Notes: a model not told the origin generated them from the letters alone. DNA of 64,000 bases from Acidobacteriota bacterium (GCA_963666055.2 CAXWPH010000015.1:512001-576000); one strand, 5' to 3'; positions 9,014-38,939 are shown, counted from the stretch's first letter. A program made the numbers and translations.

Positions 9014-9263
9014 CCTTATGAGGTCCTAACGCCGAAGACGCCCAGCAACCAGGCCTGGTGCCTTCACTCCTCCGATGCCATCTGCTCAAGCAAGGGATCG
9101 TCAGGGTGCGCTATGCTCGTGCCCTGGCAGAGGGCCGTTTCGGAGCACTGAGACATTGTTTTCTTGGTGCTCGGATGGACACCGTTAAGGTCACCAAGGT
9201 GTTTTTCGAGCGACCCTGAGGCGGCCTCGAAATCAACGCAAGCCCTTGATTTCAAGGACGGTA

Positions 9264-9347
9264 GCCGAGGTGGCGGAATTGGCAGACGCGCCGGACTCAA
9301 AATCCGGTGGGCTTACGCTCGTGAGGGTTCGAGTCCCTCCCTCGGTA
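9264..9347 (+). tRNA. tRNA-Leu(CAA)
   Basis: Acceptor stem GCCGAGG/CCTCGGT; D-arm GCGGAATTGGCAGACGC; anticodon arm CCGGA-CT-CAA-AA-TCCGG; long variable arm; T-arm GAGGG-TTCGAGT-CCCTC. Followed by CTA rather than CCA. Confidence 0.95.
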
Positions 9348-9381
9348 CTACTGAAAATAAAGGACTTAAACGACTCAAGGT

Positions 9382-10515
9382 TCAGCCCTTCGTGCCATCC
9401 GACGACGCCTTGGCACGGTTCTTGGCACGGTTTGGGTCGAAAGCGGCCACCTTCTCACGCACAGCAAGCGCCATCGCCGCGTGCTTCTCAGTGAGGTGCG
9501 TATAGCGGTCCGTCATCACACGGGTCTTGTGACGTAGCAGTGCTTGCACCAGCGCTCTTGGTGCTCCCCTGCCGATCAGGTCTGTCGCACCACCGTGCCG
9601 GAAGTCGTGCAGCCTGAGCTTGGCCGAGACGCCAGCATCATCCTTGATGCGCTTCCACGCCGCGTACATCGTCGACTCGTGCATCGGTTGTTCGCCGGTA
9701 TGGTTCGGAAACAACCACTCTGAGTCATGCGACTCCAGATGCTCCCGAAGCCTCTTTCGCAGCTGGAGACTCGCAGGCACAACCTGGTCATCACCCCCCT
9801 TCGTCGTAGGCAGGTAGATGAGTCCGCGCCGGACGCCCTCGCCGTCTTTCCAGTTCCAGTCGATGTGCTCGCGTCGAATCGTCCGAGCCTCCGACTTGGA
9901 CCGCAGCATCGCCTCCCAAAGCAGAAGCAAGAACGGCCCCATGTTCGGGTTCTTATCCGCCTCGCCGTGCTCGATCAGCGTTTCGGCTTCCTCCTGGTTG
10001 ACCGCGTACCACGCATCCGTGTTCTCGGGATAACGGGCCACGCCGGCACAAGGGTTTGCCTCGATGTGCCCTCGCGCATGTCTGAAAAGCCCGGAGAACG
10101 TCGCCAGTTGTCGATTGGACGTCGGGCCGGAGGTCTCCCTGAAAACCTCGCGCTTGAACCGCTGCACGTCTAGGAACTTCACGCGGTCGATGCGCCAGTC
10201 ACCGAATGCGGGCAGAATCCGTTTCCTCAGATTTCGGCGATGTGCGTTCAGCGTGCGCGGTGCCATCGTGCCGACGTCAACCAGGCGACTGCACTCGATG
10301 AGATAGTCGCGGGCGATGTCAGACACAGTGGGCACACGGTTCGGACCATAGTAATCACTGAAGGTGTCGCTCGCGATGGCGCGGCGCATCGCCGCCTCGT
10401 CCTCCTGTGCCTTCCACTTCGCGTCGCGCCAAGTTCCGTACGTGATGTGGCCCTGATGCTGGACGCGACTGCGATAGCGCATACCGCTCTTCGCCCGCCG
10501 CTTCAGGATGCCCAT
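9382..10515 (-). CDS. Tyrosine recombinase / phage-type integrase
   Basis: 377 aa; catalytic R (AMLRSKSE), K (TTKGG), HxxR (LHDFRH), H and Y (LLRHKTRVMTDRY); converges on the tRNA 3' end. Confidence 0.93.
   Translation of the reverse strand: MGILKRRAKSGMRYRSRVQHQGHITYGTWRDAKWKAQEDEAAMRRAIASDTFSDYYGPNRVPTVSDIARDYLIECSRLVDVGTMAPRTLNAHRRNLRKRILPAFGDWRIDRVKFLDVQRFKREVFRETSGPTSNRQLATFSGLFRHARGHIEANPCAGVARYPENTDAWYAVNQEEAETLIEHGEADKNPNMGPFLLLLWEAMLRSKSEARTIRREHIDWNWKDGEGVRRGLIYLPTTKGGDDQVVPASLQLRKRLREHLESHDSEWLFPNHTGEQPMHESTMYAAWKRIKDDAGVSAKLRLHDFRHGGATDLIGRGAPRALVQALLRHKTRVMTDRYTHLTEKHAAMALAVREKVAAFDPNRAKNRAKASSDGTKG
9409..9432 (+). repeat. Tandem 12-bp direct repeat CTTGGCACGGTT x2, putative integrase arm-type sites
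   Basis: cttggcacggtt-cttggcacggtt about 60 bp from the tRNA 3' end; inverted core cgtgcca at 9391-9397. Confidence 0.55.
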
Positions 10516-10736
10516 CGCCCCTCCCCTTTCCTCGGTCGGCGATCCCCACTCTCGAACCAGTCGCTAACCTCCGACAAGCGGTAACGTACGGTGCCGTTTC
10601 GCTTGTAGCACGGAATCCTACCGCGGCTCGCCCACACTTGGATCGTGCGAGGCGAGAGGCTCAGGAATTCCGCGACAGCCTCCGGGCCAACGAAGGGTTC
10701 CGGCGGGGAACTCGGAAGCCGGACGATTTCGCTCAT
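10503..10736 (-). CDS. Excisionase-like helix-turn-helix protein (MerR/Xis-type)
   Basis: 77 aa; VAEFLSLSPRTIQVWASRGRIPCYKRNGTVRYRLSEV; overlaps the integrase start. Confidence 0.85.
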   Translation of the reverse strand: MSEIVRLPSSPPEPFVGPEAVAEFLSLSPRTIQVWASRGRIPCYKRNGTVRYRLSEVSDWFESGDRRPRKGEGRWAS

Positions 10737-10859
10737 CGCATCGTGTCGGGGTGCAGGCTACCTGGAACATTCTCGGCCTGTGGGATGGTTGACCAACGTT
10801 GGTTGAGTTCGCTCATCCCCTAGAGACCATGGGCTGACCGGAGTCTCGAAGCCGAGCTG

Positions 10860-11447
10860 GTGTTGGATACAGAGGCTGAGGTGTGGCCAGAGTCGATCTC
10901 AGCGGACGGTGCGATGCTGCTGCTTGACAGCGGGGTCCCCCCGAATCGCGACGTGGGGATACTGGCTCTCGATACACAGGAGCCGAAAATCCTCGTCGCT
11001 ACCGCCGCCGATGAGGGTGACCCCAGTTTCTCGCCGGACGGTCGCTTCTTCGCCTTTCATTCGAACGAGACCGGGCGAAACGAGGTGTACGTGTGGGAGG
11101 TATCAAGCGGTCGGACATTTCCGGTCTCTACGAGTACCCGTGGTGGTTGGTTCCCTCGCTGGTCGCGGGATGGAAGGGAGATTTACTACCGCTCCCGGAA
11201 CAGCCCCGGCATCCTCGTTGCGGAAGTGGATTTGGAGTCGTTTTCCGCATCCGACCCTGTCGAACTCTCGGACATCGTCATGCGTGCCGAGACCAACTTC
11301 GATGTCACCGCCGATGGACAGAAGTTCCTGGTGACGGTGCCCGCTGGTAGTGATGAGACTGGGGGCACGGCATTCGGAACACGACTCAACGTGGTCCTCA
11401 ACTGGTTCGAGGAATTGAACCGGCTCGTGCCAACGGGCGGCTCCTGA
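10860..11447 (+). pseudogene. 3' fragment of a kinase-associated PD40/TolB-like beta-propeller gene
   Basis: PSFSPDGRFFAFHSNETGRNEVYV, PRWSRDGREIYY, FDVTADGQKFL; ends VVLNWFEELNRLVPTGGS*. No kinase domain upstream. Confidence 0.8.
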
Positions 11448-11640
11448 TGGTCGGCAAGACGCTCGGTCACTACGAGATCCTGTCCCCGCTCGGCGCAGGC
11501 GGGATGGGGCAGGTGTACCGAGCACGCGACACGACGCTGGATCGTGATGTCGCCATCAAGGTGCTGCCGGAAGACTTCGCCAGCGATGCTAACCGGCTGG
11601 CCCGCTTCGAGCGTGAAGCGAAGGTACTTGCTTCGCTGAC
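11447..11640 (+). pseudogene. 5' fragment of a Ser/Thr kinase gene (subdomains I-III only)
   Basis: MVGKTLGHYEILSPLGAGGMGQVYRARDTTLDRDVAIKVLP...RFEREAKVLASL, then unrelated sequence; TGATG-coupled to the preceding fragment. Confidence 0.88.
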
Positions 11641-11706
11641 CGGTGCGCCAGCCCGCGGATCTCCCATTGGACGCTCACCCGCCTTCGTTTGACCGATGGG
11701 ACTCTC

Positions 11707-12090
11707 TCAGAGATCGACTTTCTCCGACCATCGGGTGACATCGTCGTCGGTCAGCCCGAGATAATCGAGTGTCACCGACGGGTGCCGATGCCCGAGCTCG
11801 CGCTGCACAACGGCCAGCGGCGCGCCCTCGCGGTAAGCGTGGTATTCCCAACGTCTTCCTCAATGTGTGGGTAGACCATGTCCCGTCCGTCAGCCCCACA
11901 GCGGCGCAAGCGTCGCGGACGATGCGGTGAACTTGCTGGCGCGTCAGCGACTTTAGCTGCCCCTCCGCATCGTGCTCCCTCGACGGAAACAAGGGGGCTT
12001 CGAGGTCACGGCCAGCCGGATGCCCGCCGCGTCGCGGTCGCTCGCCGAGGTACAGGATCAGCGCCTCGCGACAGCCGCGCGGTGGCGAGC
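11707..12090 (-). pseudogene. C-terminal half of a second tyrosine recombinase (XerC/D-like), 5'-truncated
   Basis: PLFPSRE...LTRQQVHRIVRDAC...STHTLRKTLG; after a 1-nt shift near 11845, YHAYREGAPLAVVQRELGHRHPSVTLDYLG...VDL*. Confidence 0.8.
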
Positions 12091-12193
12091 ATGCGCGGAT
12101 CAGGGGGGAGTCCTGGATCGATGCCGGCACCCCTGGTACTGTCGCTGGCGAGCAGGGGGTGGGTCGATCTCGTCAAGACCGGGAGAGAGCGTC

Positions 12194-13348
12194 ATGTCCC
12201 GAACTGCCGCCTCGCGCCTGCTGTCGATCTTGCTGTTGTCGGGCCTGGTTCTGGTCGGCTCGGCTTCAGTCCACGGACCTTCCGTAGTCACGCCCAAGAA
12301 GGTCACGAGAATCGGCTACGTCGTCCACAGCGTCACCAAGACCGTGCAAGTCGTGGAGATTACCTGGAAGGGCAGGGCGGCCTCTCGCGCCGCGGCCAAC
12401 ATCAGCGCCAAGACGCTCGGTACCGTGACGGGCTTCAAGAACCCTGTGAGCGTCAGCGCCGCCCCGGATCTGGCGCTCGTCGTGGACGCCAAGCGCAAGC
12501 AGGTGGTTCGCATCGATCTTGCCGAGGTCAGGAAGGGCGGAGCACTGAACGTCCGGCGGCTGAGGGGCGAGACGCTCAAGACGGGCAAGGGCACCCGCTC
12601 CGTCGTCGTGAGCGGCGATGGGACGACCGGCCTGGTGCTGAAAGGAAAGCGCGACCTCCTGATGATCGACGTGCCGACGATGACGATCATTGGCAAGTTC
12701 AAGGTCGGCAAGGGCGCCGAGGTGGTCCGGGTTGATCAGCAAGGCACGGTGGCGATGACCGTCAACAAGAACAGCAGAAGCCTATCGCTGTTGGATATCG
12801 CCGCGGCGCGCGCATCGGTACGGAGCGGCTCGGCTGACGGCGTCGTGAACGTCCCTTTGCCGTGCGACCCAGGCGATGCCGGGGACGTTACGAGTTATGG
12901 TCCCTTCATCCACGCCGTCGGAAACTGCGTCTCCCAGACGGGCCGCTTGAACGAACAACTGTGGGACGGGTTCGGTATCGGGGTAGATCTCAAAATGCAT
13001 GATTTCCACGTCGACAATCTCCTCGGCCGAGTCAAGTCGGTCGCCACGTTGCGTGGTGAAAACTTTCCAGACGGCTTCATCGTCACGTCGTGCGGCGAGA
13101 GCTCGGAGTCGTGCGAGACAGACTTCGTCGACGTTTTCGGCTTCAACCAGGGGTTCATTGAGAATGGGTGTGTCACCGACGACCCTCAAGTTGTCGTCAG
13201 GTCCGACTCCCTCAGCATTTACGGGCTGCAGTGTTCCCAGGGCCCGACCGCCACCGCAGGCTGCGACGGTCCTGCTCTCGACATGATGATCTTCGCCGAC
13301 GGATTCGAGAGCGGCGACACGAGCGTCTGGTCGAGTAGCGATCCGTAG
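12194..13348 (+). CDS. Secreted YncE/beta-propeller-like protein with C-terminal IFADGFESGD motif
   Basis: ATG at 12194 after GGGAGAGAG; hydrophobic signal peptide; propeller-like repeats; Cys-rich distal part; ends MIFADGFESGDTSVWSSSDP. Confidence 0.7.
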   Translation: MSRTAASRLLSILLLSGLVLVGSASVHGPSVVTPKKVTRIGYVVHSVTKTVQVVEITWKGRAASRAAANISAKTLGTVTGFKNPVSVSAAPDLALVVDAKRKQVVRIDLAEVRKGGALNVRRLRGETLKTGKGTRSVVVSGDGTTGLVLKGKRDLLMIDVPTMTIIGKFKVGKGAEVVRVDQQGTVAMTVNKNSRSLSLLDIAAARASVRSGSADGVVNVPLPCDPGDAGDVTSYGPFIHAVGNCVSQTGRLNEQLWDGFGIGVDLKMHDFHVDNLLGRVKSVATLRGENFPDGFIVTSCGESSESCETDFVDVFGFNQGFIENGCVTDDPQVVVRSDSLSIYGLQCSQGPTATAGCDGPALDMMIFADGFESGDTSVWSSSDP

Positions 13349-13516
13349 CGTCGACGGTCGACGCTAGCGCCGGCAGGACTTCGGTCGGGTCCGTGGACTT
13401 CAGCAACGGCCGCACCGTGGTGGGCGCTGTAGCGGCGGCATTCCGGCGCTCTCCCATGGACCCTCATCCGTCCCAGCGATAGGCTTCTCGCGCTCACCCA
13501 CCCCTCTGGCAGCGCT

Positions 13517-13576
13517 ATGGAACCCGGCACCAAACTAGGCCCCTACGAGATCACCGAGCAGCTCGGTGCAGGCGGC
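13517..13576 (+). pseudogene. Very short 5' remnant of a Ser/Thr kinase gene
   Basis: Translates MEPGTKLGPYEITEQLGAGG, matching the kinase starts at 11447 and 16043. Confidence 0.75.
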
Positions 13577-13599
13577 AGGGCAAATGTTCGTCTCGTCCG

Positions 13600-16032
13600 G
13601 TGCTACTCGCGATCCTCCTAACGGCGGGTTGCACGGGGCTTGACCCCGGCCCGGCGCCGCTGACCGCAGAAGTTCCCCTACACCTTGAGGAACATCTCGA
13701 CGTGGCCACCATCGTGGGCTCCGAGGTCCCCGCAGACGCTCCGACCGCCATGGAATGGCGCTTCGACGAGCCCCAGGAGGACTGGAAGCCTCTAGTCCCG
13801 TGGAACCCGACGATAGATCCGGTCGAGGTCACGCAGCTCGACGACGCGCTGCGAGTCACACTGACGGACGGCACGAGGAATCCTCGCGGCAGGCCTAGGG
13901 GCGGCCTGGTTTTCGAGGTGCCCGATTGGAACTACGAGGATCTGGCGAACCTCGTGGTGCGTGCTCGCACCTCCGATGACGTCAAGAACTTCCGGATCTT
14001 CTTCAATAGACGCGAGGGGACCGGTACGGGTACAAGCGGCCCCAATCCATTTGAGCACGGAGGCGATGGGGCCCCTGTTGTAAGTGACGGTACGGTGCAG
14101 ACCTACCGGGCGCGGCTGGATTTTTTCGGGGGGAATCCGCCACCTGAGGAATCGATTCGGCAGATTGCCCTGTGGTTCAATCCCAGCGATCTGGCCAGCA
14201 TCGACATCCTTTCCATCACGCTAACCACGAAGGTGGCTAACTACGCCGACGCGGGCACGGCCTCGCGCACGGAAATCCGCAACCGGATCTATCGGCAGGC
14301 TCTGTATACGCACACGCCGGGGCGCGTGGAGTATCGGGTGAAGATCCCGGAAGGTGGTCGGCTCGACTTCGCCATAGGTGTCCTGCGGGAGGACGTGCCC
14401 GTGACCTTCCGGGTTACGGCGATCCTTGATGGTACTGAGGGTGGTGAACCGACCGCGCTGTTCGAGGAGCACTATGCGGACAAGGAGGCCTGGGGCCAGC
14501 GTTCGGTGGATCTGGCCGACTTTGCGGGCCAGACGGTGACGCTCGGCTTGGAGGCCGATTCCGAAGCCGAAGGGAGGGTCGCTTTGTGGGGAGCGCCGAC
14601 CGTGACGGGCGGCGGCCAGTCGGTTCTTCCCAACGTCGTCTTCTACGTCTTCGACGGCGGTGCGGCGGACTACATGAGCGTTTACGGCTACAACCGTCGC
14701 ACGACCCCGACCCTGGAGCGGCTGGCCCAGGAGGGCGTCGTGTTCGAGCGAGCCTACAGCAATTCCTCCTTTACCCTGCCCTCGACGGCCTCGTTCATGA
14801 CTTCCCTACATACGAGTGTGACGGGGGGCTTGCCTGGCCCATACATCAACCCTGTGCCTGCCGAAGCCGTGACCATGGCCGAGCACCTGCACCGGGCCGG
14901 CTACCAGACCGCGGTGTTCACGGGGAACCCCAATGCCGGGACTTTGAGCGATCTCCAGCGCGGCGTCGATCTGTTCCGGGAGGACTGGGAGGACTTCTCC
15001 TACTTCGGTGGGAATAATCACAAGGAGTCCTCGAAGTACCTCCACGAGGGATTCTGGAGCTGGCGGGAGGACTATCCCAGGCAGCCGTTCTGGGCGCACT
15101 TCCAGACTACTGACACGCACGAGGACTTTCCGGCTCCGCCACCCTTTGGCGGGCTCTTTGTCACAGCGGATGAGTGGGAGAGCGTGAACGAGTCGTTTGA
15201 GCGCCTGATGGAGTCTGGCGGGCCTGGTCCCTATTCTCCCGCCTGGGATTCTACGGGGATCAGCCGGACGGCGGTCTACTCGGTGGCTAAGGGCCTGTAC
15301 GACGAAGCGATGGCTCACAACGACTATCGGCTCGGGCAACTCATCGACCGGCTGAAGGCTGAAGGGGAGTGGGAGAATACGCTGTTGATCATCGGGGGCG
15401 ATCACAGCATCCGGGCGGCCCTCAACGACCTGGGCCTCATCCTCAACGACTCGCTGCCTCCCCGATGGAGCCAGCCGATGTTCCGGCCCACGATCTCCAG
15501 GGTGCCCCTCATGTTCGTCTGGCCGGGTCACATCGAGGGGGGACAGCGAATAGCCCCTCCGGTATCGATGATCGACGTGCTCCCCACCCTGCTCGACCTT
15601 GTGGGGCTCCCCCCTGCCGAGATCGCACAGGGGCAGTCGCTGGCTCCTCTGATGTTGGGTCGAGAGGGATGGGAGCCACGACCGGTGATTCTCGACGAGT
15701 TCGATCTCGATTTCACGACGGGGGAGCTATCGGGCTGGATCGAGGTGGTGGACGGCCGCTGGGGTGCTTCGCTGGAGATCAACCCTTATTCAAGCCAGCC
15801 GCCCGAAGAACCCCGTCCCGTCCCGCTGCTGCTCTACGACCTCTGGAACGATCCGATGGCGCTGTGGAGCGTGCACGAGGAACGGCCCGACCTCGTCCAG
15901 AAGTACACCGCCTTCTTGGAAGAGCAGTTCGAGGCCCACCTGGCCCTGTCGCAGTACTTCACGCCATCGGGCGAGGTCGAGCTGACCCCGGAGCAGCTAC
16001 GTTCACTTCGGGCGCTTGGCTACATCCAGTGA
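13600..16032 (+). CDS. Sulfatase-like hydrolase (alkaline phosphatase superfamily), probable lipoprotein
   Basis: LTAGC lipobox; PNVVFYVFD...YGYNRRTTPTLERLAQEGVVF, TLPSTAS, GDH, RVPLMF, IDVLPTLLDL; ends LRALGYIQ. Start position uncertain. Confidence 0.85.
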   Translation: MLLAILLTAGCTGLDPGPAPLTAEVPLHLEEHLDVATIVGSEVPADAPTAMEWRFDEPQEDWKPLVPWNPTIDPVEVTQLDDALRVTLTDGTRNPRGRPRGGLVFEVPDWNYEDLANLVVRARTSDDVKNFRIFFNRREGTGTGTSGPNPFEHGGDGAPVVSDGTVQTYRARLDFFGGNPPPEESIRQIALWFNPSDLASIDILSITLTTKVANYADAGTASRTEIRNRIYRQALYTHTPGRVEYRVKIPEGGRLDFAIGVLREDVPVTFRVTAILDGTEGGEPTALFEEHYADKEAWGQRSVDLADFAGQTVTLGLEADSEAEGRVALWGAPTVTGGGQSVLPNVVFYVFDGGAADYMSVYGYNRRTTPTLERLAQEGVVFERAYSNSSFTLPSTASFMTSLHTSVTGGLPGPYINPVPAEAVTMAEHLHRAGYQTAVFTGNPNAGTLSDLQRGVDLFREDWEDFSYFGGNNHKESSKYLHEGFWSWREDYPRQPFWAHFQTTDTHEDFPAPPPFGGLFVTADEWESVNESFERLMESGGPGPYSPAWDSTGISRTAVYSVAKGLYDEAMAHNDYRLGQLIDRLKAEGEWENTLLIIGGDHSIRAALNDLGLILNDSLPPRWSQPMFRPTISRVPLMFVWPGHIEGGQRIAPPVSMIDVLPTLLDLVGLPPAEIAQGQSLAPLMLGREGWEPRPVILDEFDLDFTTGELSGWIEVVDGRWGASLEINPYSSQPPEEPRPVPLLLYDLWNDPMALWSVHEERPDLVQKYTAFLEEQFEAHLALSQYFTPSGEVELTPEQLRSLRALGYIQ

Positions 16033-16042
16033 GTTCAAGAGG

Positions 16043-17299
16043 ATGATCGGCAACAAACTCGGCCCCTACGAGATCACCGCCCCGCTTGGTGAAGGCGGGA
16101 TGGGACAGGTGTACCGAGCCCACGACACGACGCTGGATCGTGATGTCGCCATCAAGGTGCTGCCGGAGGACTTCTCCGACGATGCCAACCGGCTGGCTCG
16201 ATTCGAGCGTGAAGCCAAGCTGCTTGCCTCGCTGAACCACCCCAACATCGCCACCATCTTTGGCTTTGAGGAATCTGACGGTGTGCGTTTCATCGCCATG
16301 GAACTGGTGGAGGGTCAGAGTCTCGCCGAGCGCATTGAAGCCTCCGGTCGCATTGAGGTTGATGAAGCGCTAGAGATCGCTCGTCGGATCGCGTTGGCGT
16401 TGGAGGCCGCTCACGAAGCCGGCGTCATCCATCGCGACTTGAAGCCGGCCAACGTGCAGGTCGCCCCCGATGGCACGGTCAAGGTGCTCGATTTCGGGCT
16501 GGCTAAAGCCTACGAGGCGGAAGGCAGCGATCCATCGTCCGACCTGAGCCACTCGCCCACGATGATGGCCGCCACGGGCACCGGCGTGATCATGGGTACG
16601 GCTCCCTACATGAGCCCCGAGCAGGCGCGAGGCAAGCCGGTCGACAAGCGAAGCGACATCTGGTCGTTCGGCTGTGTGCTGTACGAGATGCTGGCCGGCA
16701 AGCGAGCCTTCGACGGCGAGACCGTCAGCGACACGATGGCGGCGATTATCAGGGCGGAGCCGGACTGGGGCGCTGTGCCAGAAGCCACCCCGGCCATCGT
16801 TCGACACGTGATGCGCCGCTGCTTGGAGAAAGACCCGCAGCGCCGTTTACGCGATGTCGGCGATGCTCGGATCGAGCTCGAAGACACTCAAGCTCAGCCG
16901 CCGGGAGACCTGGTTCCTCAGGCCGCGACGAAGGGACGGCAAATCCCTGCGGTCGTACCCTGGGCTTTGGCCATCCTACTGGCAGTAGCGACTCTAGTCC
17001 TGCTCGTGTGGCAACAGCGTCTGACGGAGCCAAACGTACCCGTTCGCCGCTTTGCGATCGAGCTCCCCTGGCACGCGGTACCCAATTGGATCGATTTCAT
17101 CACCGCACTCTCGCCGCAAGGAACCCATATCGCCTACAACGGTCGCGTCCACAACCAGGTCGACGTTTACGTCCGAGCGCTGGATAGCCTCGAAGCCCAA
17201 CCGCTGGCCGACGCGCGCGGACCGGCGCGCTCAAGTATCAGCTCGTCCTCGTTCACGCTCGGGAGCAGCGTCAGAACCTGCCCCGACCTGCTGCGATAG
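16043..17299 (+). pseudogene. Ser/Thr kinase with intact catalytic domain and TM helix, truncated in the beta-propeller region
   Basis: HRDLKPAN, DFG, GTAPYMSPEQ, DIWSFG; TM segment; first propeller blade (LSPQGTHIAY); similarity ends near 17220 where it meets the ankyrin gene. Confidence 0.85.
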
Positions 17300-17919
17300 A
17301 TGCCCATCAACAGCTTGAGCCGCGCCGGTGATCTCGGCGAGTCGAGAGGTCCTGGCGCTTTCGCGCCCGCCTTGATCAGGACGTCGGCCAACTCGTTCTG
17401 CTGTGCGCGCCTCGCCGCGTCCAGTGCCAGATTCAAATATGACGGGTCGACCCCACCCCGGCCGACGATCGTCTTCACCGCGTCGGTATGGCGAGCGCGA
17501 ATCAGCGCCACCAGGGACTCCCCCTCCGTTCCCGCGCCCTTTGCCACGAGCAGCTTCACGACTTCAGCCGCGGCTTGCTTTGCCTTCGGGTCGCTGCCGG
17601 GCCGGCTGGCGAGCCACAACGGCGTCCTGCCGAACTCCAGATCTTTCGCGTTCGGGTTGGCGCCTCGCTCGAGGAGCAGCCTCACCATCTCGACGTTGTA
17701 CCGATCGGCCGCCGTGCAGAGCGCTGTTAGGCCGTGGTCGTTCTCGGCATTGACGTCCACGCCACTGGCCAGTAGCGCCGCGACGGTTTCGATGTCTCCC
17801 TTCCCCGCCGCGGCGTGGAGCTCCGCTTGGCCGACGCGCGACTGCGTGTCGGGGCGAGCGATGAGCAGCGCAACGAGTACCGTCTCGATCAACCAGCGCC
17901 GGCGAGACACGTTCCTCAT
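17167..17919 (-). CDS. Ankyrin-repeat protein, probably 3'-truncated
   Basis: LHAAAGKGDIETVAALLASGVDVNA, GLTALCTAA, GRTPLWLA; its C-terminus reads into the antisense strand of the kinase. Confidence 0.8.
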   Translation of the reverse strand: MRNVSRRRWLIETVLVALLIARPDTQSRVGQAELHAAAGKGDIETVAALLASGVDVNAENDHGLTALCTAADRYNVEMVRLLLERGANPNAKDLEFGRTPLWLASRPGSDPKAKQAAAEVVKLLVAKGAGTEGESLVALIRARHTDAVKTIVGRGGVDPSYLNLALDAARRAQQNELADVLIKAGAKAPGPLDSPRSPARLKLLMGIYRSRSGQVLTLLPSVNEDELILERAGPRASASGWASRLSSART

Positions 17920-17930
17920 ATCGAGTCTTG

Positions 17931-18438
17931 TTATGGCTGCCTGTCGTACACTCTGACTTGCTCTTCCGTTCGGCCCTGGCGATCCGTAATCTTCGCGCGA
18001 TAGGTGAAGTTCTTGCCGTCGGCCGACACGCTCAAGGACCCGTTGAAATAGATCTGCCCGTCCCGTTTGCCCGTGAGCTCGATGATCTCACCGGCTTGCT
18101 TCAGCGAAATCGAGCCGATGGTTTCCCCTCCCGTCGCTCTCGAGAACTCCGGCGAGAACTCGCCATCCAATAAGGCGGCCCAGTGACTGAAGGTGTGGTT
18201 TTCCCTGTGCGGTCACCCTCTGGATCGTGCTGAGGATCATTCCCTGGTTCGAGTAATCGAACGTCCGTATCTCGCTCTTCGGCGACCGACCGGGATCGTA
18301 TCTGGACTTCTCGACGTTCAGGATCCAGGTACCGATGAGCGGATTCGGGGCCTGCGCTGAAAACTCGAGACCACCAACCGCAGCGGCCAGGAAAGCGATC
18401 AGCAAGATGAAGCTGTAGCTGCGAGAACGGCAATGCAT
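17931..18438 (-). CDS. Secreted lipocalin-like hypothetical protein, split by a single-base frameshift near 18200
   Basis: GGAGG RBS; signal peptide; NPLIGTWILNVEKSRY; continues in a second frame to ...SVSADGKNFTY...VRVYDRQP. Removing one A from GGAAAAC restores the frame. Confidence 0.7.
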
Positions 18439-18559
18439 AGAGTCCTCCCCGTATGTTCTCGGGACCCCGACGCGCGTCGGGCGATAACTATACACCTGCT
18501 CCGCATCGCCGGATTTCTTCGTCGCATTGTCCTTTCAGCTCCCAATCCCCGTCTGGGCG

Positions 18560-18669
18560 CGGACGGCCGACTACTGGCCCTCGTTCGCCAACCGCGAGGT
18601 GATCTACAGGTAAACGTCACTCTCAACTGGGGAGAGGAGCTGAAGCGGCTCGTGCCCACGGACCCGTAG
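18560..18669 (+). repeat. Kinase-tail repeat copy B
   Basis: DGRLLALVRQPRGDLQVNVTLNWGEELKRLVPTDP*; core ctcaactgg...gagctgaagcggctcgtgcccacggacccgtag at 18622-18669. Confidence 0.85.
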
Positions 18670-19450
18670 CGTCCCGGCTGGTACTCGGTCGCTCCACGAT
18701 GTCGGGCTCGAGGCGGAGATCTCAGGTTTTCGGGCCGGGCGGGAACTCAGCATTTCTCAACATGCGCGCCCCCTGCTAGGTGTGCGCTTTGAACGGTTGC
18801 CGGGTACGCCACAGAAGCGCCGCTAGTAGCCTCTGCACTCACCGTGTACGGTCACCAGGGCACAATAGCCCATCCGCTCAGCCGCCTTTCTGCGGCGTCT
18901 CAGGGCTTCGGTGTATCGCCCGAAAATGTCTACATTTGTCAACAGGCGGTGCCGATCGGGATGTCATCATTTGTCATCATTCCGGAGCCGGTAGGCTGTT
19001 CGCTGCCGAGCGCCCCGAATACCAAACAGTTGCCAACAGGCGTCCACGGCGTGGGTAGATCTCGGCGCGTAATCGCGTATTGCCACTCGCTACTGAAAGC
19101 CCCTTTTTGTAGGTGTCAAATTTGACGAATTAGATGAGCCTCGCGCGCGCGTAGGCTTGTGAACAATCGTGAACATCGCCTTACGGTTTCGCCTCCTTTC
19201 TTAGGCGACGCTGCCTTCGCCAACCCCGAGGTCTATTCGTTCCTCGAATGACAGGCGATAGCCATCGTTTGCGCGGCGAATCCCTTGAGAGGGCTGTGAA
19301 TCTGTGCTCAAATCCTGGCGTCGTGGCGTTGTCCAACGCGAGGAGCGTGGCTGGGCAAGGCTATCTGGGAAATCTCGGGTCAAGTCGTTCAGCGCGCATG
19401 ACGGCGGCGCTGTGGAAAGCATGAATGTAGCCCATCAAACGGGAGGAGAG

Positions 19451-20788
19451 ATGGACAAACACGCGATCAATCGACGGGCCTTTCTTGCAACCTCGGCAGC
19501 GACCACAGCAGGCATGCTCACCTCTGGCACGGTGATCGCGGGTCCGAGCGGTGGGTTCACCCCCCACAAGGTGGCGCCCGGGGCCGCCATCGGTGCCCAT
19601 CCGCCACCACCGTTCTCGAAGGCAGAGTACCAGGAGCGGTTGCGCCGAGTTCGACAGCGGATGGCGCAGGACAACATCGACATGCTGTTCGTCACCATGC
19701 CCGAGGACATGTGTTATCTGCACGGTCTGGAGCTCAATTGGTTCCAACAGAACGGGCCCAAAGCCTGGGGCATGAACTCGATCACGGCGGTCCACGTCGA
19801 CCACGACACGCTCATCCACTTCGACAACCATGATGACCTGATGGCGGCGACCTCCGTGGCCAAGGACATTCGACGGGCCCGGCGCGGAGGCGAGAAGCCA
19901 TACGAAGGTCACGCCATGGAGCTGGAGGCTGCCGGCTGGCTCAACGGCACCGTCGGCCTGCAGTACTACAGCTATCGCCCCAACCCGGCGCGCATGAAGC
20001 AGGTCGAGGCGGTGTTCAGCGATCGTGGTTGCGAGCTCATCGATGCCTCGGACGTCATGGCCGAGGTCAAGCTGCACAAGTCGCCAGCGGAAATCGAGGT
20101 GATGGTTGAGGCGGGCCGCATCTGCGACATCGGCCTGCAGGCGATCGCTGAGAACCTACGGCCGGGTGTGACGGAGCTCGAGGTCTACGGTGAGATGGTG
20201 CGCGCGATGACGCGGGCCGGCGGTGGGGTCTCGGGTCTGTTCAGCTCGATCAAGGTAGGGAGCGGTTCCTTCATCCACGGCATCGCGTCAACCCGGGTGA
20301 TCCAGCAGGGCGATCACGTCATTTGCGACATCTGCGGCGTCAAGAACCGCTACCACAGCAACACGTCGCGTGGATTCTTCGTCGGCGAGCCCCCGAAGGA
20401 GCTCGCAGATCTTTACGAGATGAACGGCCGGGCGATGCACGTTGTGCGCGATACCGCCAGGGCCGGCCTGCCGCTGAACGAACTCACCCGGACGTTGCGG
20501 GAGTTCTACAAGGAGACCGGTGCCTGGCAGCTGCAAGAACAGGGCAAGATCGGTGGCTGGACGGGCGGGTATGAGCTCGGGATCAGCTTCCCGCCGGACT
20601 GGGTTGGCTGGTGGGTGTTCAACGTCACCGACGAGGATAATTCGGACTGGATTCTCCAAGAGCGCCAGGTGAGCAACTATGAGAGCTTCGCAACTCGGAG
20701 CACGGCGCTGATCGACACCTTCATCTTCGAGAAGAACCGGTGCCACCGGCTCTCGATGATGGCGCCGGAGCTCATCGTCGTCGCCTGA
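19451..20788 (+). CDS. M24 family (creatinase/ectoine-hydrolase-like) peptidase with Tat signal
   Basis: GGAGGAG RBS; INRRAFL Tat motif; PFSKAEYQERLRRVR, KSPAEIEVM, GYELGISFPPDW. Confidence 0.85.
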   Translation: MDKHAINRRAFLATSAATTAGMLTSGTVIAGPSGGFTPHKVAPGAAIGAHPPPPFSKAEYQERLRRVRQRMAQDNIDMLFVTMPEDMCYLHGLELNWFQQNGPKAWGMNSITAVHVDHDTLIHFDNHDDLMAATSVAKDIRRARRGGEKPYEGHAMELEAAGWLNGTVGLQYYSYRPNPARMKQVEAVFSDRGCELIDASDVMAEVKLHKSPAEIEVMVEAGRICDIGLQAIAENLRPGVTELEVYGEMVRAMTRAGGGVSGLFSSIKVGSGSFIHGIASTRVIQQGDHVICDICGVKNRYHSNTSRGFFVGEPPKELADLYEMNGRAMHVVRDTARAGLPLNELTRTLREFYKETGAWQLQEQGKIGGWTGGYELGISFPPDWVGWWVFNVTDEDNSDWILQERQVSNYESFATRSTALIDTFIFEKNRCHRLSMMAPELIVVA

Positions 20789-21267
20789 CGCGAGACCACC
20801 GGCGAAAAGGGCGAGGGAGGTCTTACAAGCGGCCGTAGGCTCGTCCCGGCTCATGTCAATTTGAAAACGGGGACAAGCGAATGCCGCAACGAATCTCTCG
20901 TCGACTCTCTACCTGCCTCGTAGCCGCTCTGCTCGCGGGCGTGCCGCCGCTGCAGGCGCAGATCCCGGAGCCCGATCAGGCGGGCGTCGGAATGGACCAT
21001 CTGCACCTAGGTGTGCCCTGCAGTGTGCTCCATGGGGTCTGCGCCTTCCATGGGGTCGCCATTCGCCGCGGCGACCCTCGCGCGCGAGTGAGGTAGGGTC
21101 CTACTTCGGTCTCCTCGTTGGTGTCTGGCGGCGTCAGCAACCTGAGGTTTATGAGGTTCTGATGGCCCCCGGCAATGTCAGGTTTTGGTGCCGCACCGGC
21201 TCTTCGGGGTGAAGGTTGGATGCCTCAGCCTTTCGGAGCCGGAAACTGTCCCCACCCACCGTCGGTT

Positions 21268-21315
21268 CTCAACTGGTTCGACGAGCTGAAGCGGCTCGTC
21301 CCGACGGACCCGTAG
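21268..21315 (+). repeat. Kinase-tail repeat copy C
   Basis: ctcaactggttcgacgagctgaagcggctcgtcccgacggacccgtag. Confidence 0.9.
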
Positions 21316-21450
21316 CGCGCTCAGCCGCCCCTCGCGAGCCACCTAGCGACCTTCGATTCCGCTCGTCCGCAATGCCAGGACAGGCGCCAGTCATATGTCT
21401 GCTTAGGAGCCCCGAGAAGGCCCCGCTACGGGCCGCCGGCAGCCTCTACG

Positions 21451-22563
21451 TCACGCCCCCCAGACCTGTTCGTAGACGCGCAGCCAATTGCCGCCGAGGA
21501 ACTTCTGGATATGCCACTCTGGCCAGCCGCGACGCTCGAGTGCTCGGATCACGTTGGGGAGCTCGCTGATGTTCTCGAAGCCCTTGACGAAGCGCCGCGG
21601 CCCCTCGTCCATGGCGTCCGCTCCAAAGAGCACGCGGTCCCTGATCGGTGACCGTCCCCAGGTGAAGTCGGGGCCGAGCCCGACGTGGTCAACGCCGACC
21701 AGATCGCGAATGTACTCGGCGTGCTCGAGCATCTCATCAACCGTTACCCACGGGCTCTCCGCCAGGTGGGCCATCTCCTTGCCGCGCACGACGTAGTCGT
21801 TGATCGCCACCACACCGATCACGCCCCCCGTCCCAGCGATCGCCTCGATGACCTCGTCGCCGAGGTTGCGGGTGCTGTTTGCGATGCCGCGCACGTTGCC
21901 GTGGCTGCAAATGATGGGGACGCCGGAGGACATCTGGATGGCATCGAGGCTCGTCCGATCGCCGGTGTGGCCGCCGACGTCGAGGACGATCCGCAGCTTA
22001 TGGATCTCCTCGATCAGCTGCCGTCCCGCACGGCTCAACCCGATGTGCCCATCGATGGCGCCGGCACCGAAGGCGTTGGCGATTTGGTAGGCGATGCCGC
22101 AGATGCGCAGCCCCAGCTCGTAGTAACTGCGCAGGTTGGTGCGCGGTGGGTCGCTCCACCAGTCGTTCTCGTCGCTGCGCCCACCGCTCAGCACATTCGC
22201 CGACTGCCACCCAAACAACAGGCCCAGCTTCCCCTGCCGATGCACCTCACGGATCTCGCCGACCGAGCGCACCACCTGAATCCTGTCGCCGTGCTCGTCG
22301 ATGAAGTTGTAGACGTCGGAGAAGCTCTGCCGGGCGCCCCCCACGCTCTTGTGCCAGCAGGTAACCCCACCGGCCTCGAGCATCCCGAGGTATTCCTCCG
22401 TCAGGTTCGAGGGATCGAGGCCGTTGACGACGAGGGTCGATTGAGCCGGCGGCCGCCGCTGGGCGTCGACGCCGGCCTCGGCAGCCCAGGCGGGCGCGCC
22501 GCGACTCAATCCCGTCGTTGCGCCGACCACCGCGGCACCTGTCAAGAAGCCTCGTCGATTCAT
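21451..22563 (-). CDS. Membrane dipeptidase (M19, amidohydrolase fold) with Tat signal
   Basis: MNRRGFL; GLSRAGRQLIEE, LDVGGH, CSHGN..RNLGDE, GVDHVGLGPDF, KFLGGNWLRV. Confidence 0.9.
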   Translation of the reverse strand: MNRRGFLTGAAVVGATTGLSRGAPAWAAEAGVDAQRRPPAQSTLVVNGLDPSNLTEEYLGMLEAGGVTCWHKSVGGARQSFSDVYNFIDEHGDRIQVVRSVGEIREVHRQGKLGLLFGWQSANVLSGGRSDENDWWSDPPRTNLRSYYELGLRICGIAYQIANAFGAGAIDGHIGLSRAGRQLIEEIHKLRIVLDVGGHTGDRTSLDAIQMSSGVPIICSHGNVRGIANSTRNLGDEVIEAIAGTGGVIGVVAINDYVVRGKEMAHLAESPWVTVDEMLEHAEYIRDLVGVDHVGLGPDFTWGRSPIRDRVLFGADAMDEGPRRFVKGFENISELPNVIRALERRGWPEWHIQKFLGGNWLRVYEQVWGA

Positions 22564-22969
22564 AGCGCATGCTCTCCTTCAGTGTTATCCGGCCCCGCCC
22601 TTGCCTATGATGCAGGCTGGGATACAGTCTGCAGCTTGCTCCGGTCTCCGGCGGCCCGTCTCGGACCAGAGTCCCTGGAGTGTCAAGCCGGGATTTGCCA
22701 GATGAGTGGTGTCCGGCCACGCGACCGGCTTCGGCCAATGGCAACAGGCTGATATCCAAGCATAGACCCGCGGTTTGCTCCAGGGATTCAATGCGCAAGT
22801 GATGGCTTCCGCCCATCATGACAATCCCTTGTTGTCCTTGCAGTTACGGGACCTGTGACTACCTGTTTGCATAGAACGCTGGCGTGACTGCTTACGCATC
22901 GGTACCGTTCGGGGAACCTTGTCCGTCATCCCGGCACCCACAGCGGCGGCGAGCAGAGCCGCCGAATCC

Positions 22970-23091
22970 TGGGCGACGGTCAGCAGTTCGTGATGTTCCC
23001 CGACACCGGCCAGAGAAGCCAGACTGACACGGTGTCGCTGATCCTCAACTGGTTCGACGAGCTGAAGCGGCTCGTGCCGACGGACCAGTAG
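22970..23091 (+). repeat. Kinase-tail repeat copy D
   Basis: DGQQFVMFPDTGQRSQTDTVSLILNWFDELKRLVPTDQ*; core 23044-23091 is 46/48 identical to copy C. Confidence 0.9.
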
Positions 23092-23569
23092 TGTCGTCAG
23101 CCGACTCTCCGCGAGTTCCTGCACGCTGCTGCCCCGCTACCTCTCCCGGTGCTCCACTCCAGCCACCTCAGTAGCCTCCAGAAGCAACGCTAGCTGCTGC
23201 TCTGGGATCGCCTTCCGTGTCATGGCGAGATTCACCATCGTCGGCGAGCGTGCGGATGTTGCACTGCCGCAGGGCTGAGGACGTCTCCAGCCAGATGCCG
23301 TCGAGGTGGGCTATCTGGGTGCTGGGGGTGAGCTTTCATGCGCCGGAGGGTAGCTCAGGAAGGCGGTTCGATCTGTAAGACAAGCGCTGGCGAGTGAGCG
23401 ACGACGCGATGGTGTGGCTGCCGGATCGCAAGGTGACGGTGTAATGGCCCGCGCGCGACGGAGCATCCGAGCATGGCGGAGGTCCACTGCTGGGTGACGG
23501 GACAACATGAGCCCCGATGGCCCCACCCCACCGACACGGGCGCCCGATATCAGAGCGCCATTGTCCGCA

Positions 23570-23845
23570 TCACGAGCCCGCGGAATGCTCCCCAGGATCC
23601 ACCTCGACACCTGCCCCACGTGCCGCCGAGTGATCGCCCCAGTTGGCCTGCGAAGCAAACGTATCCGTGTCCAGCGACATACTGGCGTTGCGCTCGAGAT
23701 ATGAGCGCACATCGCTTTCGCGATAGCGCAATTGCCCGCGAACGCGGACAAACGGCAACCGGCCCTCCTTGCGCTCGCGACGGATCGTCCGCGGCGAGAC
23801 CTGGAGCAGCTCTGCGAGCGTCTCGGTGGTGTACAGCTGCTGCAC
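23570..23845 (-). CDS. Excisionase-like HTH DNA-binding protein
   Basis: QQLYTTETLAELLQVSPRTIRRERKEGRLPFVRVRGQLRYRESDV; similar to 10503-10736. Confidence 0.75.
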   Translation of the reverse strand: MQQLYTTETLAELLQVSPRTIRRERKEGRLPFVRVRGQLRYRESDVRSYLERNASMSLDTDTFASQANWGDHSAARGAGVEVDPGEHSAGS

Positions 23846-24299
23846 GGTTGCGTACTCCCATGTTGGCGGAGTTCGGTAGGTGCCGAGACGAATTCGACAC
23901 CCGAGGAGTGTGCAACCGCCGTGCCAAACTCGGGCGCGTGCCCCGCGAGGCGACTGGACGCAGTACGCTTCGCCACCATAACTCACTACAACAAAAGGGG
24001 TTATCGAATACTTCCCGACCCGCTACAAGCCTCTGTCCGGCCAGCTTGGGCCACCCAGGTGCTGGTAGCGTCTCCCCCGTCCGCCCGTGCATTACGCTGA
24101 TCGAAACTGGCCTTTGCACCGTAACCCACTGATATCAAAAGCTTTATCGTCTCACCTACAAAACGTGTAGAAACTCCTACACGCTACGGGGGGATCGTCG
24201 ATGCCAGGTGGGGACGCCACCAGACAGGCGGGTACTCTCGCGAACAAGCATGGCCCACAACGGCCCCCGTCGCGGGGAATCTGAGCGAGATGCTCGCAG

Positions 24300-24408
24300 C
24301 TACCGTCTGCCACCGCACCGACTCGATCGCGAACGGCAATATATTGCTACGGTTATATGTTGCCATTACCACCGACACGCGCGGTGACCGCGGATTAGCC
24401 TGAGCCAT
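24300..24408 (-). pseudogene. 5' fragment of a family 2 glycosyltransferase
   Basis: MAQANPRSPRVSVVMATYNRSNILPFAIESVRWQT, then similarity is lost. Confidence 0.75.
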
Positions 24409-24430
24409 GAGGATCGAGGCGAGTTGGAGC

Positions 24431-24462
24431 AGCTGAAGCGGCTCGTGCCGACGGACCCGTAG
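24431..24462 (+). repeat. Kinase-tail repeat copy E
   Basis: agctgaagcggctcgtgccgacggacccgtag followed by cgtcctcagccg. Confidence 0.85.
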
Positions 24463-24609
24463 CGTCCTCAGCCGGTTGCTGGAGTATCGCTGACATCGTT
24501 CATCGCCAGCTCGGTCCGTGGTCTCTGTAAACAGGCGCTATCGGTCGGTTAGCGAGTCGCTTTCGCCACGTAAGGCGCACGGATAGCCGCCTGCGTGCTT
24601 CGGGGACGG

Positions 24610-24657
24610 ATCTTCGGGTTCGAGGAATCTGACGATGTGCGCTTCATCGCCATGGAG
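24610..24657 (+). pseudogene. Internal 48-bp kinase remnant (IFGFEESDDVRFIAME)
   Basis: 42/48 nt identical to 16256-16303. Confidence 0.8.
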
Positions 24658-24784
24658 TCAGCATCTTTACCTCCAGGGCTGGCGATGGCTCAATGTTTGC
24701 GAGCGTTTCCGTTCGACTACGGAACCACGAGCTTGCCAAGCACACCCCCGTTGAAATCGCCCCGGCGGGCAACGAGGAACAAGT

Positions 24785-25546
24785 ATGTGCCAGCCTTCCA
24801 CCGTCGATGTCATCTACGTCAACCCCGGTATCTTTGCGTTTATGTATTTGTTCGGTCTGCCCGCGATCGTGCACTTTGGCATGCTCGTTGGGCCATGGGG
24901 TGACGGGCTCAACGCGCCGCCCTCCAGCGAAGACATTGGCAGTGTGGCGGCAGGAGTGCTCGCTGATCCCTCTCCTCACATTGGCAAGCGTTACCGTCCG
25001 ACGGGACCGAAGCTCATATCGCCGCACGACGTGGCCGACGTTCTCACCGACGTAGTCGGTCGCAAGGTCAAGTACCAGGACGTGTCCACCAAGATGTTTC
25101 TCAAGGCAGCGAAGGCGCAGGGTGTCTCAGACTTCGAGATCGGCCATATTGGTGCCTACTTCGAGGAGCTTCGTGGTGGCACGTATGCGGTCGGCGCGCC
25201 GACCGATCACGTTCAAGAGGTCTTGGGCAGGCCACCGGAGTCTTTCGAGACGGCTGCTCGACGATACATCGCCCAGCCTGATCTGATCGCACCTGGTCTG
25301 CGCGTAGGCACGAAGCTCGAGGCTCTTGCCTTCATGGTTAAGATGATGCTGACTCGCGCGCCGGATCCGGAGCGCTGGGCGCGGGAGCGCGGTCATCCGA
25401 TATTGCGGGAAGCGCTGCTTGCCCACGACAGTCGTAACTGGCGCGAAGCGGCAGAGCAGAAGGACCTTCTCCTGCTGCCCACTTCCCATGTTCGAGTACA
25501 GCAAGTTTCATACCCGGAAGAACTGATAAAGACAGCTCAATGGTAA
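24785..25546 (+). pseudogene. NmrA-like NAD(P)-binding protein, 5'-truncated
   Basis: NPGIFA...GDGLNAPPSSEDIGSVAAGVLADPSPHIGKRYRPTGP; no N-terminal GxxGxxG motif. Confidence 0.7.
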
Positions 25547-25563
25547 GCAAGGAGACCCCTTCA

Positions 25564-25680
25564 ATGTCCGACCTCGATACCTTGTACGACCGAAATGAGG
25601 AATTCCCCCGCACGTTTGACCAGGGCGATCTCCCCATTTGGCTGAAGGAGATTTCGGACAGCCCCATGCGCTGCCGGTAG
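25564..25680 (+). pseudogene. Short 5' remnant resembling a beta-carbonic anhydrase N-terminus
   Basis: AAGGAG RBS; MSDLDTLYDRNEEFPRTFDQGDLPI, then a stop. Confidence 0.4.
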
Positions 25681-25734
25681 GCGCTTGCTGGGCGCCATCT
25701 TGGGGGACTTGTTAGCGAGTGGTCGAGGTAGCGG

Positions 25735-25840
25735 TCCCTGCTTCGGTCCACGTCGCGAGGATCTCATTGGCCCAACTTTGCCCTCCAACGCCAGCATGCG
25801 GCACAAGCCGCTTCAGCTCGTCGAACCAGTTGAAGATCAG
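25735..25840 (-). repeat. Kinase-tail repeat copy F (inverted) followed by a decayed kinase start
   Basis: Minus strand reads ttcaactggttcgacgagctgaagcggcttgtgccg, then ATGctggcgttggagggcaaagttgggccaatgagatcctcgcg (a decayed GKLGPYEILA). Confidence 0.8.
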
Positions 25841-26119
25841 CGCACCTGACCCATGCGCCTGCACCTGGATGCCCTGCGCGCAACTCCGCGGGGCGGCTAA
25901 CCCACGTCGCGACCTGCAGGCGCTTCCTCGCCGTCCGGCCCACCCTCCTCTAGCGCCGCTCGGTGGAGGGAACCTAAGTGATACCGTGCCGCCGCCCAGG
26001 TCATCTCCCAGCACGTCAGGACGCGCTTGCCGAGCTCCGGCCACGCGCGACCCGTAGTGCTCTCCGGCTCGAAACTAACTGTCGAGCCCGCGGGCCTGAA
26101 AACTGTAACGTAACGAGCA

Positions 26120-28741: not shown

Positions 28742-28920
28742 TCGGCGATGGCCCCAGTAACGAGCTGAATGGTTCCGCTTTTGGTTCCACATTTCCCCAG
28801 GTAATCGCTGCCGCTAGCAAGAATCACCAACGATCACGGGTCACGGCGGTCACTTCTCGGGCGGTACGTGGTTGGCTCGAGCGGGTCGGTGTCAAACAAC
28901 TTGAACAGGAGCTTGGAATC

Positions 28921-35917: not shown

Positions 35918-35934
35918 GCCGACGGACCCGTAGC
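35918..35934 (+). repeat. Short kinase-tail remnant
   Basis: gccgacggacccgtagc, an exact 17-bp match to the end of copy E. Confidence 0.55.
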
Positions 35935-37086: not shown

Positions 37087-37265
37087 CGCCCGGCTCCGGG
37101 CGAGCTGCGGTCTGGAGCCCGCCGATCGGATGGTGCCGGACCGGTCGCCAGAGGTTTCCCCGACCAGCGGAATACCGTCTACGCAGGCCGACGCACATCG
37201 GGCCCGAGGCGAAACAAGTACCCCGGGCCCGGAGTGATCTTGTGGTCAGATAAACGGGCGCGAGA

Positions 37266-38927
<1,662 letters not shown>

Positions 38928-38939
38928 TCAGTGCCTGCG

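Follow-up and report, generated by a model that had tools for sequence, protein, structure and literature searches.

The 3′ ends (tails) and the promoter-plus-start fragments (heads) of a multicopy gene family, whose proteins join a Ser/Thr kinase to a β-propeller, were over-represented in the genome of an Acidobacteriota bacterium, and the ends of blocks shared with relatives lay near them more often than under a shifted null. The analysis followed up a stretch of 64,000 nucleotides (GCA_963666055.2, CAXWPH010000015.1:512001-576000), referred to as the window, from whose first letter positions are counted. An original prediction, made from the sequence of the window, had taken recurrent orphan tails for the borders of an array of single-gene cassettes and the tail itself for an attachment site served by a nearby tyrosine recombinase. 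We lean, without great confidence, towards the reading that kinase tails and promoter-starts have acted as homologous-recombination anchors, moving unrelated single-gene modules among island loci and related genomes; a dedicated attachment site is unlikely. The promoter-plus-start fragments are the other half of the pattern and were absent from the original prediction.

Copies of the parts of the gene were counted throughout the genome examined (G000; 5.73 Mb, 15 contigs, 95.7% complete). DNA profiles, with a leave-one-out sensitivity near 1, retrieved 89 tails and 101-105 heads, compared with 56-62 kinase cores and 39-53 last propeller blades. Protein profiles retrieved 85 tails and 100-104 heads, as against 37-40 last blades and 33 copies of a motif lying 30 residues before the tail; the corresponding number of kinase cores (52-66) includes other kinase types. 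Tails were 2-2.6 times commoner than the adjacent propeller motifs. The refuting condition named in the original prediction, orphan tails no commoner than other kinase fragments, failed with respect to the middle of the gene, but the starts were as over-represented as the tails (100-104 versus 85). From 101 tail matches, 91 were retained after removing six weak unrelated matches and four in an inverted duplicate on C8. Thirty of the 91 followed at least 1350 nt of kinase, in long or intact genes, and 61 were orphans, 39 of them with less than 150 nt. The claim that no copy belongs to an intact kinase held in the window, where no tail copy lies within one, and failed genome-wide. Heads were treated similarly (95 kept from 106), with 32 long copies and 47 orphan or short copies of at most 400 nt. 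Tails formed 33 clusters across the genome, and neighbouring kinase ends were co-oriented in 91 cases compared with 14. After two non-kinase repeats, the commonest exact 18-mers were those of the tail (41 copies) and the promoter-head (37 copies). Both kinase ends are conserved while the middle is variable, and the ends persist as short co-oriented orphans.

Comparison with the DNA of relatives identified 437 distinct block ends. Near tails, 23 were found compared with 5.6 under a shifted null (maximum 13 in 200), an enrichment of about fourfold; near heads, 29 were found compared with 7.8 (maximum 15). The two flanks of a kinase end were rarely still joined in relatives (1/17 for tails and 0/7 for heads), compared with 7/27 for stops, 12/29 for starts, and 95/115 for random island points. 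When pooled, kinase ends were joined in 1 of 24 cases and other island gene ends in 19 of 56 (p = 0.004). A control including core genes (1/35 versus 78/243) inflates the effect, and island gene ends were used instead. At the locus syntenic to the tRNA-Leu of the window, the strings of modules (1-5 kb each) differed from genome to genome in G002, G003, and G004. Pieces of the tRNA-Leu 3′ end lay among the modules in all three genomes, and kinase tails and promoter-heads did so in two of them, G002 and G003. Modules with a kinase end on either side were found in new contexts, one of 1.3 kb running tail-to-tail (96.8% identity), one of 1.0 kb (95.5%), and one of 2.0 kb running tail-to-head (93%), and a 4.9-kb module running from a tRNA fragment to a tail was 99.4% identical between G000 and G002. 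Tail-to-tail modules occurred in other genomes with different flanks. The tail is supported as a preferred junction by these modules, by its excess over the internal motifs (85 versus 33-40), and by the excess of block ends near it over the null, and to this extent the original interpretation was partly supported.

Several points weigh against homologous recombination at kinase ends. Tracts of 45-70 bp are short for efficient homologous recombination. Most breakpoints (385/437, approximately 88%) lay away from kinase ends, with 52/437 at them, and the breakpoint points are mutually non-independent. The 1.1 Mb of relatives' DNA that was compared came mainly from around tails. Ordinary island gene ends were often broken as well (37/56), tails did not differ from gene stops alone (p = 0.13), and informative ends were few (17/51 tails and 7/29 heads). 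Profiles pick up conserved ends more readily than diverged middles, and why 39 of the 61 orphans keep less than 150 nt is accounted for by inference only. The segments of the window between successive tails B-C, C-D, and D-E did not appear as units among the listed matches of G001-G004. A search for loop-out or circular joints, which the original prediction had proposed, found none in the contigs of four runs at 97% likeness; at 90% likeness, the joints listed (15 of 84) lay between paralogs.

The tail copies of the window were located by self-BLAST and by inspection of the sequence, which confirmed five direct copies and one inverted copy: A (11397-11447), B (18622-18669), C (21268-21315), D (23044-23091), and E (24423-24462) in direct orientation and F (25799-25846) in inverted orientation. 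As predicted, B-E end at a common TAG, about 12 bp beyond it are common to C, D, and E, and successive copies are spaced by 2.65, 1.78, and approximately 1.37 kb. Orphan tail D (22945-23103, +; stop at 23091) retains about 150 nt of kinase and some post-stop bases, orphan tail E (24423-24474, +; stop at 24462) is short, and the inverted tail F (−) is without its last codons. Orphan tail C (21268-21450, +; stop at 21315) is followed by a 25-bp post-stop block and a non-coding segment of approximately 110 bp. A conserved non-coding segment of this kind (approximately 110-180 bp; 21341-21450 in the window) was found behind 20 of 133 tails, from four genomes, and had no match in Rfam. Copy A had been counted as a member of the array. 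It does contain a tail, which is of the other type, ending PTGGS*; about 620 nt of first-type kinase precede its end (10824-11447, +), and TGATG couples it to a truncated second-type kinase start (MVGK...; 11447-11639, +), a fusion that is the native junction of a two-gene kinase tandem. Two further start remnants lie at 13449-13580 (+), where an orphan promoter with −35- and −10-like boxes precedes a start (ATG at 13517) truncated past about 20 codons, and at 16043-17224 (+), where the 5′ 40% of a second-type kinase is truncated within the first propeller blade. An internal kinase-domain fragment (residues ~72-88) occupies 24609-24658 (+). Among the distant remnants that had been proposed, 35918-35934 (+) is an exact 17-mer of the tail, 43766-43793 (+) is a 28-bp tail-like match at 93% whose status as a remnant is uncertain, and the 10-bp match at 26049 is at chance level.

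Mis-assembly of the array had been named as a refutation. Short-read contigs 100% identical to the window span tails B (16846-19690, three runs) and F (25382-26503), from three runs of two studies in all, of which the best contig-holding runs may include the source sample. Assembly error at B and F is ruled out by these bridging contigs. At C and D, the contigs end within the repeat core, and E is bridged by none among the contigs listed; thus, adjacency at C, D, and E rests on the assembly.

The family proteins have approximately 900 residues and combine a Ser/Thr kinase with a membrane helix and a double β-propeller, both predicted; the tail corresponds to a strand and short helix predicted at the end of the propeller. 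A fold search with the propeller model returned generic double-propeller matches (TM about 0.3), and relatives of the kinase were found mainly in Acidobacteriota records. Across 12 intact genes, the start was approximately 75% identical and the last 15 columns were 78% identical, compared with 30-45% for the propeller. The native arrangement is a tandem of a promoter-led first gene and a coupled second gene ending PTDP*. The conserved sigma70-like promoter ahead of first-type kinases is kept in orphans (13449-13516 in the window; approximately 60 loci genome-wide). At six loci (15960-16050 in the window; C2, C5, C10, and C15), a sulfatase gene precedes a second-type kinase, its 3′ end being coupled to the kinase start, and it therefore occupies the place of the first kinase. 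Intact paralogs are mosaic, with identities of 80-94% and 45-58% alternating inside one pair, as judged from windowed identity among eight intact genes. comEC is present in the genome.

It is possible, rather than probable, that the fragments are passive debris. On this account, kinase paralogs often travel in highly mosaic islands, where deletion wears them down; starts would be retained because they donate a promoter and tails because they hold a useful 3′ element or are easier to detect, and breakpoints would coincide with them only as with all island gene boundaries. The broken control gene ends, the comparison of tails with stops, and the 88% of breakpoints elsewhere, all given above, fit this account. 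Cargo downstream of orphan promoters was co-oriented with them in 22 cases compared with 9 (p = 0.03), and the predicted strand and helix mean that protein selection explains the conservation of the tail at the amino-acid level. The debris account leaves unexplained the synonymous homogenisation of the tail: agreement at four-fold sites among the 12 intact genes was 0.78 in the tail and 0.67 in the first codons, compared with 0.52 in the kinase core and 0.39-0.43 in the propeller. Nor were orphans more decayed than intact copies, as orphan tails matched the consensus at 96% of positions (n = 47) and intact ones at 94% (n = 16), with 94% and 88% at third positions, in a comparison where detection favours good matches. 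Also unexplained are the 91:14 co-orientation, the modules with both ends kinase-derived in new contexts, and the lineage-specific tail codon variants, one of which is found in the genus and another in G007, G012, and G014. Five other multicopy island genes (sulfatase, DUF5916, M24, S15, and MacB) showed no comparable excess of ends.

In the survey of tail variants, 10 of 15 genomes of the order matched. Orphans made up 20 of 35 tails in G002, 15 of 22 in G004, 3 of 6 in G003, 10 of 28 in G012, and 4-5 of 19 in G007. A restriction of orphans to the genus, suggested by a best-match sample (G012 0/7 and G007 1/8), was overturned by this fuller sample. Orphan tails in other genera end in a different terminal sequence.

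Integrons keep single-gene modules between direct repeats with a tyrosine recombinase nearby, and the window has a similar appearance. We consider it unlikely that the tail, or the surroundings of its stop codon, is an attachment site at which a dedicated tyrosine recombinase accretes cassettes in an integron-like manner. Pairs of tails with a common upstream flank mostly diverged within a few bases past the TAG, which would suit a fixed site; this divergence is also expected because a 45-bp core is common to all copies. The predicted single breakpoint position within the motif was not found. Private differences in 11 hand-picked pairs placed the parental switches at scattered points, the outermost near −62 in one pair and past +26 in another, with a third pair switching somewhere from −45 to −33. 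This test is not absolute, as gene conversion could blur a fixed crossover point. Positions +3 to +5 after the stop, which lie between two conserved blocks, were the most variable (entropy 1.25-1.5 compared with 0-0.6 in the flanking blocks; 42 copies). Variable coupling sequences are a feature of Tn916-type elements. The non-coding positions +11, +23, and +24 were nearly as variable. The core carries a 6-bp inverted repeat (spacer, 7 bp). In 39 of 112 copies, one arm pair was broken and no compensating change was present, and the palindrome was rejected as a recombinase core on these grounds. A short core site around the stop was also rejected, as no excess of 10-mers was found outside the known tails.

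Heads and tails have no common sequence and yet behave alike, and orphans of G012 and G007 occur without this ending, both of which argue against an attachment site in the tail. In one case (C5:65686-65720), an 8-bp match marks the point where the 5′ end of a tRNA-Arg meets the post-stop block, as an attachment site would allow. In the surrounding region (C5:65608-65890), an inverted, altered copy of tRNA-Arg with a perfect 5′ palindrome, called tRNA-Pyl by ARAGORN, is followed by the kinase post-stop block, an arm-like repeat, and a tRNA-Met fragment. Genome-wide, pieces of tRNA within 400 bp (tRNA 16-mers) were found for only 5 of 72 tails and for 12 of 324 controls, and arm-like repeats were not enriched (9 of 72 tails and 29 of 324 controls). 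By these counts, the candidate explanation that the kinase is the last gene of tRNA-targeted elements holds for a minority only. Three families downstream of tails resemble integrase arm regions. Another candidate, in which the tail would tag cargo proteins at their C-terminus, was rejected, as no in-frame fusion was found and the open frames preceding orphan tails had a median length of 156 nt (n = 55).

The array does contain an integrase and an excisionase. The integrase (9382-10515) adjoins tRNA-Leu (9264-9348), its closest paralogs likewise lie beside tRNAs, and it scored 33.6 bits against the integron integrase model TIGR02249 (cut-off, 265). The claim that the tail is served by this recombinase is not supported, given these findings together with the like behaviour of starts, the scattered switches, and the uncompensated palindrome. 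Unlike integrons, the kinase-end system has no IntI, no compensated attC-like hairpin, and no fixed crossover, and its cargo lies in both orientations (31 same versus 24 opposite upstream of tails; +, −, and − in the window). In Rfam, the region 9000-29000 matched tRNA and no other structured RNA, and folding, performed without shuffled controls, gave weak hairpins only. An extended form of the same idea is improbable, namely that the kinase-family ends have been domesticated throughout the order as plug-and-socket cassettes, with approximately 190 short sockets per genome held alike by selection, a dedicated recombinase cutting just past the tail stop (+3 to +5 being the coupling sequence), a protein-coding site, and gene trade across species.

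One-ended or RNA-templated copying, by retroposition, rolling-circle replication, or a transposase of the repetitive extragenic palindromic (REP) type, would leave a 3′ end fixed near the stop or +25 and random 5′ truncation. The fixed outer end and variable 5′ truncation of orphan tails agree with such copying, and 33 of 120 tails reach the last position of the post-stop block. REP elements have GTAG followed by a hairpin, which the GTAG and weak hairpin of the tail resemble. Neither reverse transcriptase (PF00078) nor Y1 transposase (PF01797) was found in the 95.7%-complete genome. Heads begin at the −35 box, outside any mRNA, and the post-stop block is almost always linked to a tail (23 of 31 matches). 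We regard one-ended copying as very unlikely.

Under homologous recombination at kinase ends, the first entry of foreign DNA would use a homologous anchor on one side and an illegitimate junction on the other (homology-facilitated illegitimate recombination), leaving a remnant with a fixed outer end and variable length. Two ends on either side of a piece of cargo (tail-tail, head-tail, or tail-head) would then allow RecA-type crossover, at any point of the promoter-head block or of the tail block (~70 bp), to copy or swap the cargo or to loop it out and insert it again. One such crossover within a tail would duplicate the tail and could produce strings such as B-E. The same exchanges would homogenise the ends, with deletions eroding the useless middle, and tRNA-targeting integrases would seed islands in parallel.

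These features were compared with known systems. For Rhs loci, displacement of C-terminal tips leaves strings of variable-length core fragments, and excision and re-insertion by homologous recombination was proposed (PMC2935791). The kinase ends likewise form co-oriented strings of conserved fragments of varying length. Unlike the Rhs core, which lies 5′ of an exchangeable tip in frame within the same protein, the kinase anchors lie at the very 3′ terminus of the gene and at its promoter-start, the cargo is unrelated and not in frame, and there are approximately 33 clusters. The lpl genes of Staphylococcus aureus (PMC2568036) and the esaG and Streptococcus tipC genes (PMC9484751) are tandem paralog clusters evolving via conserved blocks, tipC having 5′ and 3′ homology blocks around a variable middle. 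They share with the kinase family conserved blocks and variable regions, mosaic paralogs, recombination at the blocks, and units that cross gene boundaries. As far as these sources describe, they shuffle their own family at one locus, in contrast to the kinase blocks, most of which are orphans flanking foreign genes, spread throughout the genome and found in different species.

Minimal mobile elements of Neisseria exchange whole-gene cassettes by homologous recombination between conserved flanks with no dedicated recombinase (PMC3082526), and the sequence pattern around the kinase ends is consistent with such exchange. In the described elements, a pair of intact, conserved genes at a single syntenic site forms the flanks, whereas the kinase flanks are broken paralog ends with modules at non-syntenic sites; the flanks are repeated approximately 190 times, and exchange would therefore be ectopic and additive. 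Arrays of Vibrio type VI secretion effector-immunity genes arise by repeated homology-facilitated illegitimate recombination that yields orphan arrays (PMC5361080); there, the immunity genes are described as being under clear selection at fixed loci, whereas the kinase-end cargo is mixed and has two kinds of anchor. In tRNA-anchored additive islands and tycheposons, a tRNA is accompanied by an integrase, an excisionase, and partial tRNA repeats (bioRxiv 10.1101/2020.12.28.424599). The island of the window resembles these in its tRNA, integrase, and excisionase, and relatives carry tRNA-Leu fragment arrays at the same locus; unlike the tRNA repeats of the described elements, the repeats studied here are kinase ends, few of which lie near tRNA pieces. 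Domain movement between non-orthologous genes via conserved flanks is a further analogue (PMC3467074). In its working, the kinase-end system would come closest to Rhs strings, lpl and tipC clusters, type VI secretion arrays, and minimal mobile elements, set within tRNA-anchored additive islands. Given the differences from integrons, Rhs loci, and minimal mobile elements, it belongs to none of these. No description of such exchange for this kinase family was found in the openly accessible literature, subscription journals and supplements being outside this coverage.

The left anchor of the island is tRNA-Leu(CAA) (9264-9348, +), whose locus is syntenic in G001, G003, and G004 and is then followed by different cargo. 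It is next to the tyrosine integrase (9382-10515, −; PF00589), which is likely tRNA-targeting and not an integron integrase. No tRNA-Leu fragment was found downstream of the tRNA in the window, compared with several at the syntenic loci of G002-G004. Arrays of tRNA-Leu(CAA) 3′ fragments past the intact tRNA were observed at G003:C33:493000-535200 (approximately 10), G002:C8:552000-611300 (5), and G004:C2:89800-93000 (2), and these are classical additive islands at the syntenic locus. A weak tyrosine-recombinase remnant (11675-12130, −; PF00589, E = 0.009) was below the cut-off. It is followed by a cargo open reading frame (ORF) of 458 aa with weak propeller matches (11972-13348, +), a sulfatase (13600-16032, +), an ankyrin-repeat gene (17167-17919, −), and a small ORF with no family above the cut-off (18101-18433, −). 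The head-sulfatase-head block of the window was found again in G002 at a different locus with 87-88% identity.

Between the tails, the predicted cargo was largely confirmed, comprising an M24 peptidase/hydrolase (19421-20788, +), an M19 dipeptidase exported by twin-arginine translocation (Tat) (21451-22563, −), and an excisionase-like helix-turn-helix ORF (HTH_17; 23570-23986, −). The predicted GT2 fragment was not confirmed: its 55-aa piece had no Pfam match, and 23116-23345 (−) is the 3′ part of a repeated family of ~75-residue ORFs, with about 10 copies, which follows 6 of 133 tails in convergent orientation. The region 23626-24265 was 95% identical to G002. An NmrA-like fragment (24785-25546, +) scored below the cut-offs. 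DUF5916 cargo lies at 26120-28769 (+), and its part 26474-28769 has a duplicate of 99.96% identity (C15:791076-793372) that continues directly into a full tail; the duplicate ends at a 2-bp microhomology junction on one side and at the tail on the other. Positions 28762-28769 are likely the first bases of a remnant of that tail. Arm-like direct repeats at 18960-18985, 24150-24190, and 28770-28797, near the excisionase and past the DUF5916 module, suggest that additional integrative elements have left traces here.

A palindromic family of miniature inverted-repeat transposable elements (MITEs), separate from the tails, supplies the most frequent repeat of the genome (175 copies of an exact 18-mer) and has copies in the window at 48788-49066, 62301-62480, and 63912-64000. 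The MITE also occurs after the stop of two kinase tails (C15:1120362 and C14:410866) and accounts for part of the block ends. The groEL region (37188-39408) has a second copy on C12 with 99.7% identity (36637-39245 corresponding to the region C12:318470-320692). A 13-kb inverted duplicate within C8:29538-66961 and an 8-kb duplicate (C6:1-8030 versus C13:58156-66188), both above 99.9% identity, represent either recent duplications or assembly redundancy.

If exchange by homologous recombination at kinase ends is correct, its effect is partial, involving approximately one breakpoint in eight. An expanded family of signalling genes would then also serve, throughout the genome, as a network of landing sites for unrelated genes without having its own integrase, which would help explain why the islands of uncultured Acidobacteriota are mosaics of single-gene modules, traded across species at up to 99% identity. 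The paralog-block recombination known from Rhs, lpl, and tipC would be extended from parts of the same family to foreign cargo, and short, highly conserved gene ends may be kept for their DNA sequence.

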